A DNA stretch of 64,000 nt from Acidimicrobiia bacterium (GTDB lineage: Bacteria > Actinomycetota > Acidimicrobiia > Spongiisociales > ZC4RG35), in the NCBI GenBank assembly GCA_050742015.1, contig JBOGEV010000012.1, positions 326 to 64,325 on the forward strand. The letters are read 5' to 3'. The position numbers and the translations under genes were made by a program. A model generated the notes under the pieces. It did not search any database and was not told where the DNA came from. It worked only from the letters and a program-made list of their open reading frames with translations. Positions 2,605 through 33,559 of this stretch are shown piece after piece. Each line of letters starts with the position of its first letter. Position 1 is the stretch's first letter.

Positions 2605-3393
2605 ATGGCGCTACTCGAGATCCGTGAGCTGAAGAAGACCTTCGGGGGCCTCAGGGCCATCGAAGGCCTCGACCTGCATGTCGACGAGGGGGAAATCGTC
2701 TCCATCATCGGCCCCAACGGTGCGGGGAAGACCACCCTGTTCAATCTGATCAGTGGGCTGTTCCCTGTCGACGAGGGCGAGATCCTGTTCGGTGGCCGCA
2801 CCCTGAAGGGTCTCTTCCCCAACGACATCACCGAGTTGGGGCTGGCCCGGACCTTCCAGAACGTGAGGCTCTTCCCCAACATGACGGTCCTAGAGAACGT
2901 GATGGTGGCCCGGCACTGCCGGACCAAGTCGGGAATCTTCTCGTCGATCTTTCGCACCCGTCGTTTCCGTCAGGAGGAAGCCGACACCAAAGCGAAGGCG
3001 GAAGAGATCCTGGGATTCTTCGGCAGCCGACTCGTCGGGTACCGGTTCGACCAGCCCGCCTTCGTCCTGTCCTATGCCAACAGACGTCGGTTGGAGATCG
3101 CCCGGGCGATGGCCACAGATCCGAGGATGATCCTCCTCGACGAGCCGACGGCGGGCATGAACCCTCGGGAGACGGCTGAACTGACGGAGTTGATCGGAAG
3201 GCTGCGCGACGACCATGGTTTCACCATCTGCATGATCGAGCACGACATGCAAGTGGTGCGGGGGGTCTCCGACCGGGTCATCTGCCTCGACTACGGGAGG
3301 AAGATCGCCGAGGGGACGTACCAGGAGGTCGCCACCAACGAGCAGGTCATCGAGGCATACCTGGGTCGCAAGGCCACGGACGCCGCCTCGTGA
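2605..3393 (+). CDS. livG: Branched-chain amino acid ABC transporter ATP-binding protein, LivG-type
   Basis: Walker A GPNGAGKTT, signature-region LSYANRRRLEIARA and Walker B ILLDEPTAGMNP. 262 aa. Confidence 0.9.
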   Translation: MALLEIRELKKTFGGLRAIEGLDLHVDEGEIVSIIGPNGAGKTTLFNLISGLFPVDEGEILFGGRTLKGLFPNDITELGLARTFQNVRLFPNMTVLENVMVARHCRTKSGIFSSIFRTRRFRQEEADTKAKAEEILGFFGSRLVGYRFDQPAFVLSYANRRRLEIARAMATDPRMILLDEPTAGMNPRETAELTELIGRLRDDHGFTICMIEHDMQVVRGVSDRVICLDYGRKIAEGTYQEVATNEQVIEAYLGRKATDAAS

Positions 3394-6069: not shown

Positions 6070-7299
6070 ATGAAGCGACGGTTGATCTGGATCTCGCTCG
6101 CCGTCCTGGCTTTGGCCGTGACGGTCACCGCGGTGCTGGTCGCCGACCGGGAAGAGTCCGAACCGATCACAGTCGGAGCCGTCTACAACACCAGTGGCGG
6201 CATGAAGTGGCTGGATCAGCCCGGAATCGAAGGGCTGCTGCTTGCAGCCAACCAGATCAACGACGAAGGCGGCGTTCTCGGCCGGAATCTGGAGGTGGTC
6301 GAGGTGGACGGGACCACCGACACCACCGAGATGTCTCGCCTCGTGTCCGGGCTCGCCTCGAACGATGACATCGTCGCCATTGCCGGAGTCAATGACCCGA
6401 TCCACGCCATCTCCCCGATTCGCGGGGCCCTGCGCAGGGCGGACGGGGGGCTCATCACCTTCTCCCACTCCGAGATGGCCCTGGCGGTGGGGAGGGTGAC
6501 CGGGCCTGCCGGGTTGCCGTTCGTGACCGCGGGCTCCACGCTTTCGTCCCTTCCGGACGAGGTCGGCGATGACCTGTTCATGGTCGCCGCGACCCATGAC
6601 GCCGAGGCATCTGCGGCGGCCGATCATGCCTGGGAGGAGCTTGGCGGCCGTCGAGCCTGGATCCTGGCAGGAGAGGGACGGGACTTCGCAGCAACTCTCG
6701 CTTCGTCGTTCCAGCAGCGCTGGAGCGCGCTCGGCGGCGAGATCGTCGGCACGGACTCATTCCTGCCTGGCGAGCTGCAGATCTCCGAGCAGATCGGCCG
6801 GCTTCAGGCTCTGCCTGTGGAGCCCGACGTGATCTTCATCGCCAGTCTTCAAAACGACGGCGGATACCTGGTGCAACAGCTGAGGGGGGCGGGTTTGGAC
6901 CAGCCGATCCTGTTCGCCGATGTTGTCGACCCTCGCTACATAGCGGCCATGGCCGACGACGTGTCCGACGTCTACATGGCGTCTCACGGGACGCTGGTCG
7001 ACTCCGGCGATGCCATCCGGGAATTTGTTGCGGCCTACGAGGCCGAATATCAACACGCTCCCGAGAGCGCAACGGCCATGTTGGGCTACGACTCGATGCG
7101 TCTGATAGCCGATGCGGTCGAACGTGCGGGCTCGGCAGAGCGGGACCAGATAAGTCAGAGCCTGGCGGCGACCCAAGACTTCGACGCGCTCACCGGCCTC
7201 CTCTCATACACCTCGAACGGAGTGCCCGCCAAGACGATCACGATCATGAAGTACCAGGACGGGGCGCCCGTGGCTGCCACCGACATCGTGCCGCACTGA
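6070..7299 (+). CDS. ABC transporter substrate-binding protein, type-1 periplasmic binding fold (Leu/Ile/Val-binding-like)
   Basis: N-terminal signal/anchor (MKRRLIWISLAVLALAVTV). LivK/Amino-acid PBP1-like body (ITVGAVYNTSGG; GVLGRNLEVVEVDG; YDSMRLIADAVERAG). Probably the binding protein for the nearby liv permease/ATPase genes. Confidence 0.8.
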   Translation: MKRRLIWISLAVLALAVTVTAVLVADREESEPITVGAVYNTSGGMKWLDQPGIEGLLLAANQINDEGGVLGRNLEVVEVDGTTDTTEMSRLVSGLASNDDIVAIAGVNDPIHAISPIRGALRRADGGLITFSHSEMALAVGRVTGPAGLPFVTAGSTLSSLPDEVGDDLFMVAATHDAEASAAADHAWEELGGRRAWILAGEGRDFAATLASSFQQRWSALGGEIVGTDSFLPGELQISEQIGRLQALPVEPDVIFIASLQNDGGYLVQQLRGAGLDQPILFADVVDPRYIAAMADDVSDVYMASHGTLVDSGDAIREFVAAYEAEYQHAPESATAMLGYDSMRLIADAVERAGSAERDQISQSLAATQDFDALTGLLSYTSNGVPAKTITIMKYQDGAPVAATDIVPH

Positions 7300-7318
7300 T
7301 CCCCGCCAGGTGAATTGG

Positions 7319-8179
7319 TCAGCCTTCGATGACCGTCAGCGAAGATCCCTGACCCACCGAGATCACCCAACCCGATCCGGCAACAGGGCTCTCGAACCCG
7401 TCGCTGCTTGCGAGCCATCCGGCCGGCACTGCGGCCTGACCGACCACCCTCGCCGGGACACCGGCGGGGACTGTGACTTGGAAATCTCCCGAGACGGTCA
7501 CGACCACGCTGTCCGTGACCGAGCCCAAGATGGTCTCCCCTCCTCCGTCGAGTTGAAGGGAGGCGAGACGGAGACGGCTCAGGTCGGCTTCGACATCACC
7601 TCCGAGCGACAGACTCCAGACCGGGGCCTCATCGAGGTCGAGCTGCCAGCCGGCAAATGTGTACAGGCCCGGATCCTCGGAAGGGCTGATGGCCACAGCG
7701 ATGTTGGCCCCCTGGATCTGCTCCACGGCAACCGGCGGCCCGATGTCCCCTCCCCGGCGCACCGGCTCCACCGAGTACAAGAACCCAGATTGGCCGGATC
7801 CGACCTCGAGCCTGCCTTCGATGCTGGCGGACAGGGCGCCCGTCGCGACTGAGCCGGCCTGGGGGCCATTGAGGTTGGTCGACGCCGACGGCATGGCGGG
7901 CCAGCCGAGGACGTGGCCGGTGACGAACAGTCCGAGGACGATCAGCCACAGGATCGGGACCAAGGCCATCACCCGCACCCTCCCCCAGCGACGGCCCCGA
8001 GCCAGGAGGGTGAGGCCCAAGAGCAGGAGCCAAACCGGCCACCAGGCGATGAAGTCGTGGAAGACCGAGCGGCTGAGGTAACCGAGAAGGGCAGCGGCAA
8101 CGATGAGAGCCAACCCCAGCACGGGCAGGGTCCACGCCCTGGGCACCCCGCGGCGAGCGCCACCGGAGCGATGGGTCAT
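7319..8179 (-). CDS. Hypothetical membrane protein (4 N-terminal TM helices plus beta-rich C-terminal domain, LiaF/DUF-like)
   Basis: 286-aa ORF whose start overlaps the upstream gene's stop (ATGA at 8176..8179). N-terminal hydrophobic helices are followed by a repetitive beta-strand-like C-terminal half. No family recognised with certainty. Confidence 0.6.
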   Translation of the reverse strand: MTHRSGGARRGVPRAWTLPVLGLALIVAAALLGYLSRSVFHDFIAWWPVWLLLLGLTLLARGRRWGRVRVMALVPILWLIVLGLFVTGHVLGWPAMPSASTNLNGPQAGSVATGALSASIEGRLEVGSGQSGFLYSVEPVRRGGDIGPPVAVEQIQGANIAVAISPSEDPGLYTFAGWQLDLDEAPVWSLSLGGDVEADLSRLRLASLQLDGGGETILGSVTDSVVVTVSGDFQVTVPAGVPARVVGQAAVPAGWLASSDGFESPVAGSGWVISVGQGSSLTVIEG

Positions 8180-21972: not shown

Positions 21973-21990
21973 ATCCGTTTCTCTGTCGTC

Positions 21991-22012
21991 GTAGCGCCAC
22001 ATATGGCGCTAC
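21991..22012. terminator. Hairpin GTAGCGCC-ACATAT-GGCGCTAC between convergent genes
   Basis: Perfect 8-bp stem and 6-nt loop, 19 nt after the 21972 stop and 17 nt before the convergent 22029 stop. No U-tract. It shares the CCACATATGG core with the repeats flanking the DUF559 gene. Confidence 0.5.
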
Positions 22013-22028
22013 GTACCTCAGGTAAGAC

Positions 22029-27950: not shown

Positions 27951-28001
27951 GAAGTTAGAGCCAGAATGTCGATCGTGGGTTTCGTTGCCTCCATCCGACG
28001 C

Positions 28002-29279
28002 ATGGCCGACGCCACCCCGCCGGAGCGCAACCGTGTGGTGGACCTGCTCCGCGCCGCGTCGATCCTCGTCGTCGTGTTCGGCCACTGGCTCATGGCGGCC
28101 GTGACGATCGAGAGCGGAGAGCTGGTCGCCGGGCACCTCTTGATCCTCGCCGACTGGACTCACCCCCTCACCTGGGTGTTCCAGGTCATGCCCGTCTTCT
28201 TCCTCGTCGGGGGCTACGCCAACGGGTTGTCGTGGCGGTCGGCACGGCGCCGTGGCGAGAGCTATGGGGGCTGGCTCCGGGCGCGGCTCCGCCGGCTCAT
28301 CCTGCCCGTCGTGCCCTTGCTCCTGTTCTGGACGGCGGGAGGGTGGCTCGGGCTGAGGCTCGGTCTCGATTGGGAGGTGCTCCAGCTCGCCTCCCAGGTG
28401 GCCCTCGTGCCGACCTGGTTCCTCGCCGCGTATGTGGTGATCGTCACCATCGCCCCGCTGGCGCTCTGGATCTGGGAGCGTTGGGGGTGGTGGACCATCG
28501 TGGGCGGGATCGCCCTGGCCGGCCTCTGCGACTGGCTCTCGATCGGCGCCGGCATGGTCCCGGTTGGCTTCCTCAATTACATCTTGGTCTGGGGAACGGT
28601 CCACCAGATCGGGTACGCCTGGCTCGACGGCAGGCTGGACCAGGTCTGGAAGCGGCTGCTCATGGCCGGGATCGGTCTGGGCGGGACCCTGCTCCTGGTA
28701 GGCCTCGGGCCCTACCCGGTGGCGATGGTCGGCCTCGACACCAACGAGATCACCAACTCATACCCGCCACGGGTGACCCTGGCCTTTCTCGGCATGTTCC
28801 AGTCCGGGGTCGCGCTTGCCCTCGAGCGTCCCCTGCAAAGACTGATGCAGCGGAGGGGTGCCTGGACGTTCGTGGTCGGGGTGAGCGCCCGGATCATGAC
28901 CCTCTACCTCTGGCATCTGACTGCGATGGTGATCGTCATCGGGCTCTCGCTGGCGGTTGGGGGATTCGGGCTCGGTATCGAGCCTCTCACTGCCGGCTGG
29001 TGGCTCAGCCGGCCGATCTGGTTCCTGGTGGTGGGGCTGGTGACGGTGTCGATGGTGGCCATCTTCGGTCGCTTCGAGAATCCGGTCGAAGACCTTCGCC
29101 CTGCGCCTTCCTGGTGGCGGCCGGTCTTGGCGGTGTTGGGGATCTGCGCCGGACTCGGCCTGCTCGCCGCCATCGGCATCGCCGATGACGAGGGCCTCAA
29201 CGGCCTCGTCCTCAGCCTCCCCATCCTCGGCGTGGTGGTCGGCGGGATCTCCCGCCTCCCGGCGCTACGTCGAACCTGA
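28002..29279 (+). CDS. Acyltransferase family 3 membrane protein
   Basis: N-terminal RVVDLLRAASILVVVFGHW and about 10 TM helices. Start is ATG 28002 or 27966. The ORF-track start at 27507 is antisense to yhhQ. Confidence 0.75.
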   Translation: MADATPPERNRVVDLLRAASILVVVFGHWLMAAVTIESGELVAGHLLILADWTHPLTWVFQVMPVFFLVGGYANGLSWRSARRRGESYGGWLRARLRRLILPVVPLLLFWTAGGWLGLRLGLDWEVLQLASQVALVPTWFLAAYVVIVTIAPLALWIWERWGWWTIVGGIALAGLCDWLSIGAGMVPVGFLNYILVWGTVHQIGYAWLDGRLDQVWKRLLMAGIGLGGTLLLVGLGPYPVAMVGLDTNEITNSYPPRVTLAFLGMFQSGVALALERPLQRLMQRRGAWTFVVGVSARIMTLYLWHLTAMVIVIGLSLAVGGFGLGIEPLTAGWWLSRPIWFLVVGLVTVSMVAIFGRFENPVEDLRPAPSWWRPVLAVLGICAGLGLLAAIGIADDEGLNGLVLSLPILGVVVGGISRLPALRRT

Positions 29280-29319
29280 GGTTCTGCGTTCCACATATGG
29301 AACTAACAGTCTCAGGTTC
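29272..29319. repeat. Structured repeat, left copy
   Basis: GAACCTGAG-gttctgc-GTTCC-acatat-GGAAC-taacagt-CTCAGGTTC. The outer 9-bp arms and inner 5-bp arms are self-complementary. Confidence 0.9.
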
Positions 29320-29342
29320 CCCGGGCAGACACCCCTGGAATC

Positions 29343-30281
29343 TTGCGCCGCAAGCTGACATGCTGGACGTCGGTGGGAGAGAAGACATTGCGCCTCATCG
29401 GGCACGCTCGTGCCAACGGTGGAGTCATCACGACAGCTGAGGCCCAAGCGCTCGGCTTCAGCCGGACCACACTGTCGAGATGGGCCCAGACGGGTGCCTT
29501 GACCCGAGTCCAACGAGGTGTCTTCGCCCTGCCCGGGCTCAACTTGAGCGAGGAGGAGGTGCTCGAGGATGCTTGCCGACGCCTGATTGCGGTTGTCTCC
29601 CACCATTCCGCTGCGAGGCTGCACCTCTTCGACGGCGTGCCGCGGGCGGCTCCCTGCGTGACGGTGCCGCATCGGCTCACCCACAGATTCCCAGGCGTCT
29701 ACGTCCATCAATCAACGGACATCACCGACGACGAGCTCGTCTCGATTCGGGGTCTTCCGGTCACCAGCCCGGAGCGCACCATCATCGACCTGGCCGCAAT
29801 CGTCGGAGACGGCCGAATGGATTGGATTCTCGATCGCGCCCTGTCTTCAGGAACAGTCGACCTTGCGAGGTTGTCGGACCTCTTCTCCACGCTGGGCCGC
29901 CGTGGCAAGCCCGGGACCACGAGGGTCAGACGGATGCTCGAGAAGCGAGACGCCTCGTACACGCCCCCGGATACCGTCCTCGAGCAGCGACTCCTCGGGA
30001 TCATCGAGGGAGACGGCCTGCCCAAGCCGGAGCTGCAGTTTCGACCATCGTGGCTGGTGCCGACCCAGGGCCGGGTCGACTTCGCGTATCCGGATCAGCA
30101 GTTGGTGGTCGAAGGGGACAGTCGCAAATGGCATCTGCTGATGGAGTCGTTCCAGATCGATCGGCACCGTGACAATCAAGCGCAGTTGGCCGGATGGCGC
30201 ATCCTTCGCTTCACTTGGAAGGACATCGTCGAGGAGCCTCTCATGGTGGCGAACTCGATCCGTACTGGGTTGGGTCTGTAG
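29343..30281 (+). CDS. DUF559 (Vsr/endonuclease-like) domain protein with N-terminal AbiEi-type HTH
   Basis: N-terminus GGVITTAEAQALGFSRTTLSRWAQTGALTRVQRGVFALPG. C-terminus RVDFAYPDQQLVVEGDSRKWH ... LAGWRILRFTW. Start is uncertain (TTG 29343, GTG 29373). Confidence 0.8.
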   Translation: MRRKLTCWTSVGEKTLRLIGHARANGGVITTAEAQALGFSRTTLSRWAQTGALTRVQRGVFALPGLNLSEEEVLEDACRRLIAVVSHHSAARLHLFDGVPRAAPCVTVPHRLTHRFPGVYVHQSTDITDDELVSIRGLPVTSPERTIIDLAAIVGDGRMDWILDRALSSGTVDLARLSDLFSTLGRRGKPGTTRVRRMLEKRDASYTPPDTVLEQRLLGIIEGDGLPKPELQFRPSWLVPTQGRVDFAYPDQQLVVEGDSRKWHLLMESFQIDRHRDNQAQLAGWRILRFTWKDIVEEPLMVANSIRTGLGL

Positions 30282-30308
30282 CTCAGCCCTTGAACCTGGT
30301 GGAATCGA

Positions 30309-30358
30309 CGAACCTGAGACAGTTGGTTCCACATATGGAACGTGGAACCTCAGGTTCG
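30309..30358. repeat. Structured repeat, right copy (inverted relative to left copy)
   Basis: CGAACCTGAG-acagttg-GTTCC-acatat-GGAAC-gtggaac-CTCAGGTTCG. Its reverse complement matches the left copy at 43/50 positions, against 37/50 in direct orientation (hand count). Confidence 0.9.
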
Positions 30359-30371
30359 GCGTAACACCGGC

Positions 30372-31025
30372 CTACTCGATGACGGCGAGGAGGGCGGGGT
30401 TGAGGCGGTTGTAGCCGACGAGGTTGGGGTCGGTGACGCCGGCGTACTCCCAGTGCCAGGGCTCCTGGCCGGGTTGTCCGCAGTGGGCCCAGTCGGGATG
30501 CACCCACCCGAAGCGATATGCGTTGCCCTGCAGCCAGCGGAAGGTTTCGTCCGAGCAGCCGAGGACGCCACGCCCATCGGTGAAGTCGACGGCCCGGCCC
30601 CATCCGTGGTTGGAGTGCCCGGCCTTGGCGATCGGAGGCCCGCTGCACACGATCTCGGCCGTGACCCCGGTCTGCACGGTGACTCCAGTCAAAGGGTCGA
30701 CCCCGAAGACCGGAGTCTCGACCAAGGGACAACGAGCGCTGTAGGCGTTCGCCTGGGTGCGGTACGACCGGTAGCAGTCCTCGTACCCGAGTCGGACGTC
30801 ATCCGCAGCGGCTGCCTCCATCATCAATGCATACATGTAGGCGGCGTCTCGCTCCAGGGTGCAGCCGTCCATGGTCATGAGGCGGGAATCTTCCATGCTG
30901 CCGTTGACGTACCCGTCGGCCTGGAGGTCGAGGGTGTAGGCCTCGTCGCTCGCGGGGACATACTGAGGGGTGGGCAGTGCGGCGACTGCGGTCGAGATGG
31001 CGAGAATAAAAGCGATTATTGGCAT
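30372..31025 (-). CDS. M15-family D-Ala-D-Ala carboxypeptidase/VanY-like metallopeptidase
   Basis: Signal peptide, then the zinc-ligand motifs SNHGWGRAVDF and EPWHWEY. Confidence 0.8.
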   Translation of the reverse strand: MPIIAFILAISTAVAALPTPQYVPASDEAYTLDLQADGYVNGSMEDSRLMTMDGCTLERDAAYMYALMMEAAAADDVRLGYEDCYRSYRTQANAYSARCPLVETPVFGVDPLTGVTVQTGVTAEIVCSGPPIAKAGHSNHGWGRAVDFTDGRGVLGCSDETFRWLQGNAYRFGWVHPDWAHCGQPGQEPWHWEYAGVTDPNLVGYNRLNPALLAVIE

Positions 31026-31072
31026 GCCGATTGGAGACCATCATCGGCAAAAAGCCCCGCCAGCTTTAGCGA

Positions 31073-33559
<2,487 letters not shown>

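Follow-up and report, generated by a model that had tools for sequence, protein, structure and literature searches.

On contig C12 of a draft genome from the Acidimicrobiia (assembly G000; 3.40 Mb in 344 contigs, 65% G+C, 97.9% complete), a DUF559 nuclease gene lies between two inverted copies of a nested DNA hairpin. We describe this gene and its hairpins in a 64-kb stretch of that contig (the window), together with related hairpins and genes elsewhere in the genome and in the genus. DUF559 is a very large family and, to our knowledge, no function has been assigned to it. Repetitive extragenic palindromic (REP)-like palindromes are abundant in many bacteria, and we know of no enzyme partner of such palindromes identified outside the Proteobacteria, where the partner is RAYT, the REP-associated tyrosine transposase.

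The nuclease gene and its two hairpins

The gene sits between an acyltransferase gene and the gene of a VanY/M15-type peptidase, beyond which lies ClpC (Table 1). The original prediction, made from the letters of the window, placed an element of the form GAACCTGAG...CTCAGGTTC on each side of the gene, and both are present, at 29272-29319 and 30310-30357. The pattern of their outer arms has exactly 2 matches in the window and 0 in 100 shuffles. In a repeat search the arms extend to an inverted repeat of 61 nt (29259-29319 and 30310-30370) that is 85% complementary; read in direct orientation, the pair has 75% identity across 52 nt. A base-by-base recount returned the 43/50 (inverted) and 37/50 (direct) identities that had been counted by hand. 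Each copy is also a nested hairpin, as proposed, which folds as single-stranded DNA at -13.0 kcal/mol (left) and -17.4 kcal/mol (right), with 0 of 200 shuffles equally stable (z-scores in Table 1). The unit, which we call family 1, measures ~60 nt and has an outer palindrome, GAACCTNAGGTTC, and an inner stem, GTTCC/GGAAC. The left unit consists of an outer flank, GGCGCTACGT, followed by CGAACCTGAG-GTTC-TGC-GTTCC-ACATAT-GGAAC-TAAC-AGT-CTCAGGTTCC, and the right unit, read on the minus strand, of GGTGTTACGC followed by CGAACCTGAGGTTCCACGTTCCATATGTGGAACCAACTGTCTCAGGTTCG.

As had been noticed from the sequence, the left copy holds the stop codon of the acyltransferase gene (TGA, 29277-29279, reading ...CGA ACC TGA), which lies inside the hairpin arm CCTGAGG. 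The right hairpin begins 3 nt past the stop codon of the peptidase gene (30372-30374, minus strand). The left hairpin thus supplies the C-terminus and the stop of the acyltransferase, and the C-termini of acyltransferase orthologs are unlike at occupied vs empty sites. Since the stop codon of a neighbor sits in a hairpin arm, gain or loss of a hairpin rewrites protein C-termini. The TGA of the CCTGAGG arm is also the stop codon of the neighboring gene at hairpins on contigs C109, C277, C314 and C100 of G000.

Between the left hairpin and the nuclease gene runs a leader whose sequence is common to the orthologs (consensus ...tggca(t/a)(g/c)tt...gg(g/a)ATGgg(a/g)a(a/g)acaagac); a stretch shared in this way probably holds a promoter or leader belonging to the nuclease gene itself. 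The N-termini of the orthologs (MG[ND]KT...) make GTG 29373 a likelier start than TTG 29343, and the start codon was moved to the former, giving a protein of 302 aa.

This protein joins an AbiEi-like winged-helix module (approximately residues 1-190) to a DUF559/Vsr-like nuclease domain of the EDxHD type (approximately residues 200-302). The original prediction of an AbiEi-type helix-turn-helix (HTH) with a Vsr-like nuclease fold is upheld by Pfam (AbiEi_4, E 2.5e-11; DUF559, PF04480, 22.9 bits vs a gathering cut-off of 20.6), by PADLOC (AbiEi, 4e-32, residues 5-192) and by comparison of structures. Profile matches of the N-terminal ~190 residues in the PDB were to the AbiEi entries 6y8q and 9hlo. 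With an AlphaFold2 (AF2) model built from 32 homologs (mean predicted local distance difference test score, pLDDT, 83.6), Foldseek found 6y8q (AbiEi of S. agalactiae, E 7e-9) and 1zel (Rv2827c of M. tuberculosis) for this module and, for the C-terminal ~100 residues, the homing endonuclease I-Bth0305I (3r3p, template modeling (TM) score 0.75), NGO0050 (3hrl, 0.77) and Vsr (1vsr, 0.54), the TM values being normalized to the target. Residues D236, E247, D249, W253, H254, D263 and D267 are invariant in 32 of 32 homologs, down to 36% identity, a pattern compatible with an active site of the EDxHD/Vsr type. Among orthologs dN/dS is 0.10-0.25, and dS reaches 1.4-1.9 between most lineages; therefore, the nuclease gene is old and under purifying selection.

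There is a second way to read such a protein. The AbiEi family binds inverted repeats, and AbiEi proteins autoregulate by binding those of their own promoters. Residues 1-190 match a complete AbiEi antitoxin, and the protein could be a regulator with a regulon, in which the upstream hairpin serves as operator and the dispersed hairpins described below are further binding sites, for instance nucleoid sites, roadblocks or helpers of terminators. Its nuclease domain would then be vestigial or otherwise used, and hairpins would go with the gene, unbound sites losing their function. The position of the left hairpin, 52 nt upstream of the start codon (33-102 nt in framed loci of homologs), suits an operator, as does the outer 13-mer GAACCTGAGGTTC, a duplex palindrome of the type bound by dimeric HTH proteins. 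What speaks against a regulator at this locus is the invariance of D236, E247, D249, H254, D263 and D267 over the same 32 homologs and the lack of an adjacent AbiEii toxin gene: the neighbors are the acyltransferase and the VanY-type peptidase, and the hairpin-bounded unit holds no further open reading frame. We consider a regulator rather unlikely.

Table 1. Positions of the features at the window locus and of the paralogous system in the same genome
Feature	Position	Strand	Basis
Acyl_transf_3 acyltransferase gene (host flank)	27960..29279	+	Pfam 1.6e-25
Left hairpin unit, family 1	29261..29320	+	covariance model R1 76.7 bits; fold z = -3.2
Leader, 52 nt, left hairpin to start codon	29321..29372	+	junctions of 6 genomes aligned by eye
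Nuclease gene, 302 aa	29373..30281	+	start GTG 29373, stop TAG 30279-30281; AbiEi_4 + DUF559
Right hairpin unit, family 1, inverted relative to left	30309..30368	-	R1 83.8 bits; fold z = -5.1
VanY/M15-type D-Ala-D-Ala carboxypeptidase gene, convergent with the acyltransferase gene	30372..31025	-	Pfam 5.7e-16
ClpC gene, next after the peptidase gene	31073-33559	-	
Paralog, second DUF559 system, beside the GroEL 3' end	G000 C337:6601-7488 (system 6551-7600)	-	49% identical

Dispersed hairpins in the genome and in the genus

A census of G000 by BLAST and motif scans found 43 family-1 hairpins at 24 loci, which fall into 17 tight inverted doublets, 2 doublets that span a gene and 5 singles. The tight doublets have their GTTAC sides outward and spacers of 20-83 nt, and the gene-spanning doublets enclose the DUF559 gene (C12) and an aminotransferase-like gene (C195). 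All 43 hairpins are extragenic; the outer end mostly lies 5-20 nt off a stop codon, or supplies the stop, and the doublets are found chiefly between convergent genes, others being placed between tandem genes or facing gene starts. The consensus unit is (G)GTGTTAC-NN-CGAACCTGAG-GTTC-YRC-GTTCC-AYATRT-GGAAC-GAAC-NGT-CTCAGGTTCG; conservation does not extend past the GTTAC flank at one end or past the outer arm at the opposite end. When 58 units were aligned on the specified structure, compensatory changes were seen in 4 of the 6 pairs of the inner stem and 94% of cells were paired, vs 23-46% in slid controls of the alignment. A location mostly at gene 3' ends rather than at promoters is a further point against the regulator.

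Four DUF559-type genes are present in G000. The original prediction called for a search for other DUF559 copies and for the repeat; among the four genes only the one in the window carries family 1, and one of the others has a different family. Conversely, 41 of the 43 family-1 hairpins are not beside any DUF559 gene. The repeat is thus a REP-like element and not private to the gene, and scattering of this kind is what the original prediction had named as refuting a cassette. A RAYT/IS200 partner was ruled out, as a search for the Y1/RAYT transposase domain (PF01797) gave no match in the whole genome. An integron attC reading of the GTTAC...GTAAC ends was likewise ruled out: their polarity and sequence are wrong compared with R''(RYYYAAC)...R'(GTTRRRY), and the doublets are scattered, not arrayed.

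Hairpins that abut stop codons, with most doublets between convergent genes, are terminator-like. They might be ordinary REP-like or terminator elements at gene ends, preserved by some different factor or because RNA 3' ends are under selection, with the DUF559 gene merely placed in a gap between two of them. The aminotransferase gene, framed alike in G000 and several relatives, fits this, and the stems contain G-U intermediates, which are compatible with pairing at the RNA level. Nevertheless, the family-1 hairpins in the window are without a T-run, and a search of Rfam (E <= 1, over 28000-31500) gave no family match, only a chance match to a small nucleolar RNA. A reading of the doublets wholly as two independent terminators of convergent genes was ruled out by the doublets between tandem genes (C109, C230, C281 and C322) and by outer ends that face gene starts (C73, and the right side of C195). 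That the gene should be a bystander among such elements is, in our judgment, very improbable, and the hairpin counts across the genus also stand against it, since they follow the presence of the gene.

These counts come from 31 species-level genomes of the genus, searched with the covariance model R1, in which one hairpin usually scores on both strands (the 86 matches in G000 are the 43 hairpins). The eight genomes with an intact gene gave 86, 68, 60, 56, 52, 38, 31 and 21 matches, and pseudogene genomes gave 50 (G044), 27 (G013) and 25 (G008). Among the 18 genomes with neither gene nor pseudogene the numbers were 14, 6, 4, 3, 2, 2, 1, 1 and 1, with nine zeros. Hairpin count is associated with gene state at p = 7.5e-5 (Mann-Whitney, non-phylogenetic) over the 26 genomes of a ClpC tree, and the 4 phylogenetically independent pairs that rest on well-supported branches all point the same way. 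The thresholds and the clade tests were set only once the data had been seen.

The gene itself keeps to one place. Orthologs of 64-68% identity are present in 7 further genomes (G001, G007, G021, G022, G041, G042 and G043; 8 of 31 with G000), and 7 of 7 adjoin the M15 peptidase and ClpC genes, have family-1 hairpins at both ends and occur once per genome. G044 and G008 carry pseudogenes with stops at the same locus, with a hairpin still beside them. The peptidase gene is present in 28 of the 31 genomes. Seven genomes (G002, G005, G011, G016, G017, G019 and G045) have empty sites, at which neither the nuclease gene nor a hairpin separates the acyltransferase gene from the peptidase gene and the two abut or overlap; the acyltransferase gene is also missing in 5 other genomes. 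The hairpins are therefore the boundary of a presence/absence unit, as the original prediction had it. Its expectation that an empty site would keep a single hairpin between the two host genes failed at all seven.

On a tree of 2.5 kb of ClpC DNA the gene-bearing genomes are scattered, and the adjacent peptidase agrees. The fewest gene-state changes on this tree number 5, or seven losses if the gene is ancestral. The nuclease tree has groups that match the variant of the inner stem: G022 + G043 have GTTTC, G007 + G042 have GGCCC (support 95/94), G001 + (G021, G041) have GTTGC, and G000 stands alone with GTTCC. The ClpC and peptidase trees reject G007 + G042 (approximately unbiased (AU) test, p 2.5e-5 and 2.3e-4), and the nuclease tree rejects ClpC groupings (AU p 0.0013 and 0.0007), where the p-values are indicative only, the groups having been named after the trees were seen. 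The conflict of the nuclease tree with both flanking trees suggests that the hairpin-gene-hairpin unit was probably exchanged between lineages, with at least one swap.

Clean empty sites and a gene tree at odds with the trees of the flanking genes are what a mobile cassette would leave, that is, a selfish homing-like element inserting as a hairpin-gene-hairpin unit between convergent genes. The nuclease fold is that of I-Bth0305I, and at a second locus (described in the next section) one site is shared by two unrelated alleles that differ in their hairpins, and its empty versions hold a solo palindrome, GCTTACCTNAGGTAAGC. As to the features of homing endonucleases, empty alleles exist, there is no intron or intein, and the unit is at one locus only. 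A mobile element would not be expected to keep to a single copy in each genome and to an unchanging locus, with no second-site cassette in any of the 31 genomes. Moreover, dS between alleles is 1.4-1.9, so that any exchanges are ancient, and a cassette explains neither the hairpins away from DUF559 genes (41 of 43) nor why dispersed hairpins are lost along with the gene and decay. Thus, of the mobile, homing-like lifestyle first proposed, the endonuclease-like fold and the conflict between gene and flanks stand, the single copy at one locus does not agree with it, and we regard the cassette as quite improbable.

The aminotransferase-like gene (G000 C195:21367-22636) offers a second orthologous hairpin site, as its framing by a family-1 pair is conserved in deeply diverged members of the genus. 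We located the gene in 28 genomes, and an R1 scan of its flanks covered 26 relatives. At least one hairpin is present there in every scanned genome with an intact nuclease gene (G001, G021, G022, G041, G042 and G043, plus G000), in the pseudogene genomes G044, G008 and G013, and in G018 and G023. Scores of only 11-16 bits were found in G046 and at the second sides of G016 and G019, and 12 gene-less genomes were without any R1 score. Alignable, non-palindromic relics could be recognized by eye at this position in the gene-less G020/G006, G024/G004, G015 and G017/G002. Simple counting of pairs was uninformative as a measure of decay at this locus (asymmetric bulges, opposite orientation), and bit scores of the model were used instead. 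The aminotransferase gene also shows an internal or terminal TGA in nine genomes, which may just be the query running beyond the stop.

The inner stem at the aminotransferase site is GTTCC in G000, GTTTC in G022, GTTGC in G041, G044 and G023, and GGCCC in G042; wherever the sequence was read, it is the prevailing variant of that genome. These hairpins have been in place since before the lineages split, yet their stems are lineage-specific, which therefore points to homogenization (gene conversion or re-insertion) and not to independent drift. Replacement of a stem genome-wide at orthologous loci needs a homogenizing process at the DNA level, beyond binding, and in this respect too the regulator falls short.

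Further hairpin families and distant homologs

The paralog on C337 is framed by another palindrome, family 2, of the form CCTAATGCAGGGCGTCAC..GTGACGCCCTGCAT (CCTAATGCAGGGCGTCACGCATATGTGACGCCCTGCAT), which has 135 pattern matches in G000. Its GroEL-side locus is syntenic across the genus. Allele 2a with family-2 hairpins is found there in G000, G001, G002 and G017, and the same intergenic site holds an allele 2b, 46-48% identical to 2a, in G043, G010, G018 and G022 and as a pseudogene in G013. Allele 2b is framed by a third family, TACCTGAGGTAC-GTAGCGCC-ATAT-GGCGCTAC. Apart from two genomes taken up below (G042 and G003), the counts again go with the gene: family 2 has 92-135 matches in allele-2a genomes vs 0-18 in others, and family 3 has 19-58 with an intact allele 2b vs 0-17 in others (16 in G013). 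The pairing of alleles 2a and 2b with different families and the G007/G042 group of the nuclease tree suggest that an allele swap would re-program the hairpin variant.

Several smaller observations concern these families. The empty GroEL-side sites of G003, G046 and G019 retain a 17-bp solo palindrome, GCTTACCTNAGGTAAGC, with the sequence that results when the outer ends of the two hairpins are joined; the solo palindrome left at the G003 site reads GCTTACCTCAGATAAGC and is built of the outermost ends of both. An orphan family-3 hairpin, TTCTCTGTCGTCGTAGCGCCACATATGGCGCTACGTACCTCAGGTAAG, lies in the window at about 21975-22027, and G000 as a whole has 17 family-3 pattern matches (both strands counted) without the cognate allele 2b. 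In G003 (stretch L021, about 2995-3140), between the peptidase gene and a YhhQ-like gene, there is another palindromic repeat in two tandem copies (GTGTGCAAGGAGTTGCCCAGGCGGCAATTGCCTGCACA...), and a related GTGTGCA...TGCACAC element occurs in G015 (L028) and in L130, so that the genus has further hairpin families. The outer-arm core CCTNAGG is invariant in all units of families 1 and 3, within a 13-bp duplex palindrome (GAACCTNAGGTTC or TACCTNAGGTA). This core, a site type of restriction enzymes of the Bsu36I class that also resembles the CTWGG context of Vsr, may be the site of the nuclease.

Framing extends beyond the genus. Of 47 loci of homologs in other Acidimicrobiia and beyond, 35 are framed by their own inverted pair of ~45-60-nt hairpins, with the upstream hairpin 33-102 nt (in one case 8 nt) off the gene start (z >= 6.5 vs shuffles). 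Among the 12 unframed loci are those of the Solirubrobacterales homologs and of one homolog from the Acidimicrobiales, at ~30% identity, as well as that of an Acidimicrobiaceae homolog with 34% identity and the two pseudogenes of the genus. Three DUF559 lineages within the genus thus each lie between copies of their own distinct family, and 35 of 47 homolog loci are framed likewise at a conserved distance; therefore, chance framing, as the bystander explanation would have it, is no explanation. In the literature searched we found no link between DUF559/Vsr-like nucleases and dispersed palindromes. The only mention was a table row (PMC9881135) that lists DUF559 proteins as over-represented among predicted targets of inversion, a result to be expected for genes that lie between inverted repeats.

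A proposed resident nuclease with dispersed cognate hairpins

We give a probability of about 0.55 to a partnership that resembles the REP-RAYT systems, or REPtrons, but with a non-HUH enzyme: the cognate hairpins would be maintained by the nuclease. The data fit a resident gene of this kind, with its hairpins dispersed over the genome, better than a jumping cassette. The protein would recognize the ~60-nt nested hairpin that frames its own gene and stands at ~40 further extragenic places, mostly no more than ~10 nt from a stop codon. It would nick or cut at hairpins, and the breaks would be repaired from other copies, which would keep the copies alike by concerted evolution to a genome-specific 'master' stem and would now and then add, pair or delete copies. 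The gene itself would not jump, being single-copy and inherited mostly vertically at one locus, with the whole hairpin-gene-hairpin unit occasionally replaced or lost; after loss of the gene the dispersed hairpins would decay by point mutation. Nuclease breaks repaired from other copies would account for the genome-specific stems, the neutral spacers and flanks, the decay and the near absence of new sites. From these patterns in the sequences we infer binding, cleavage, gene conversion as the homogenizing step and any de novo insertion.

We also put forward a broader proposal, to which we assign a little under an even chance: that AbiEi-DUF559 proteins are the enzymes behind an unrecognized class of REP-like repeats in the Actinomycetota. 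The nuclease of each lineage would have a ~60-nt hairpin of its own as substrate, dozens of copies would stay identical through ectopic repair, and a swap of alleles at the fixed locus would re-program the stem genome-wide. If true, a resident replicator living with a population of repeats, to date known from RAYTs only, would have arisen a second time and independently.

Several observations weigh against a partnership that maintains hairpins. Two of these concern replication. First, among the 17 doublets the spacers resemble one another, and the interior of the gene unit, no more than shuffled controls do. Second, a ~90%-identical relative (Ga0268386, four metagenome contigs) has hairpins at the same loci as G000, and the comparison with those four contigs revealed no new hairpin insertion. 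Replication is therefore rare, if it occurs at all. Within this comparison, the relative shares the doublet at C100:40077, with more divergence in the 21-nt spacer (5/21) than in the hairpins, and at C258:12650-12798 a doublet in G000 corresponds to a single hairpin in the relative, with an 86-nt indel between directly repeated CGAACCTGAG arms. Copy number thus shifts by such conversion between doublet and singlet, and on present evidence the system is not very dynamic. The doublets of G001, G022, G041 and G042 have constant spacers of ~21 nt. Miniature inverted-repeat transposable elements (MITEs) derived from the gene unit by internal deletion were ruled out as the nature of the doublets, whose spacers match neither the interior of the unit nor each other.

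The remaining points concern the co-distribution of hairpins and gene. All genomes of the comparison set are metagenome-assembled genomes, 61-99% complete, and R1 was trained on gene-bearing genomes, so families with changed outer arms are missed. G018 and G023, in which the locus is unassembled, have many family-1 hairpins (43 and 33 R1 matches). The gene-less G019 (69 bits), G016 and G003 each hold one good hairpin at the aminotransferase locus. G042 has 111 family-2 matches with no gene found, the locus being unassembled, and G003 has 50 family-3 matches though its allele-2b gene is gone. Also, four independent pairs cannot go below p = 0.125, so the phylogenetic test is underpowered, and plain vertical co-inheritance would by itself yield part of the match between the nuclease tree and the hairpin variants.

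The closest known counterparts of the proposed partnership are the REP/REPIN-RAYT systems (REPtrons) of Proteobacteria (Bertels & Rainey 2011, PMC3116915; PMC3337134; PMC5581495), REPINs being the paired form of the palindromes. A RAYT is assigned to a REPIN population when it is flanked by that population, occupies the same extragenic space and falls into monophyletic clades, and REPINs decay after the RAYT is lost (bioRxiv 10.1101/2021.07.10.451892). The nuclease gene described here is flanked by its hairpins and keeps the same extragenic space, and the grouping by variant and the decay are seen with caveats (the four pairs; G019 and G003). The two systems share a single-copy gene in a fixed extragenic space between inverted cognate palindromes, tens of dispersed extragenic copies with many inverted doublets, mainly vertical inheritance, several gene/repeat pairs in one genome, and repeats that decay where the gene is lost or broken. 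They differ in the enzyme, which is an AbiEi winged helix with a Vsr/EDxHD-type nuclease here and an HUH/Y1 tyrosine transposase (PF01797) in RAYT, and in the host, which belongs to the Actinomycetota (Acidimicrobiia); no transposition chemistry can be deduced for our case. Also, a REPIN doublet is copied whole with similar spacers, whereas the spacers here are not conserved; therefore, the copied unit is not the whole doublet. With the assignment features of a RAYT present, but with an unrelated enzyme and a doublet that is not copied whole, the system would be REPtron-like in its working and not a member of the family.

Three other groups of systems resemble parts of it. The N-terminal ~190 residues are like the AbiEi antitoxins of the type IV AbiE systems (6y8q, 1zel) in sequence and fold; unlike in AbiE, there is no partner gene for an AbiEii nucleotidyltransferase, a nuclease is fused at the C-terminus, and the palindrome is dispersed genome-wide instead of being confined to a promoter. 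The C-terminal ~100 residues share the fold and the E-x-D...W-H...D set of Vsr-like/EDxHD nucleases (1vsr; I-Bth0305I 3r3p, PMC3239194; NGO0050 3hrl), but the gene is outside any intron or intein, is not paired with a cytosine methyltransferase in the window and carries an AbiEi-like specificity module. With MITEs and IS200/IS605-type elements the hairpins share long, hairpin-forming terminal inverted repeats and scattered, short, gene-less versions; they differ in having no transposase gene, no target-site duplication at the ends of doublets and no conserved interior, and in standing at orthologous positions across deeply diverged species.

Across this genus the hairpin population follows the gene. 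The genus amounts to a natural experiment, with 31 genomes, three gene/hairpin pairs, at least 5 gene-state changes, several pseudogenes and two allele replacements. A causal link would give DUF559 proteins a function and the orphan repeat families of the Actinomycetota a candidate enzyme, and it would mean that a long-lived partnership of enzyme and repeat has evolved at least twice from unrelated nucleases. The partnership would also supply sequence-specific pairs of a DNA-binding nuclease and its target, with natural variants (GTTCC, GTTTC, GTTGC and GGCCC stems).

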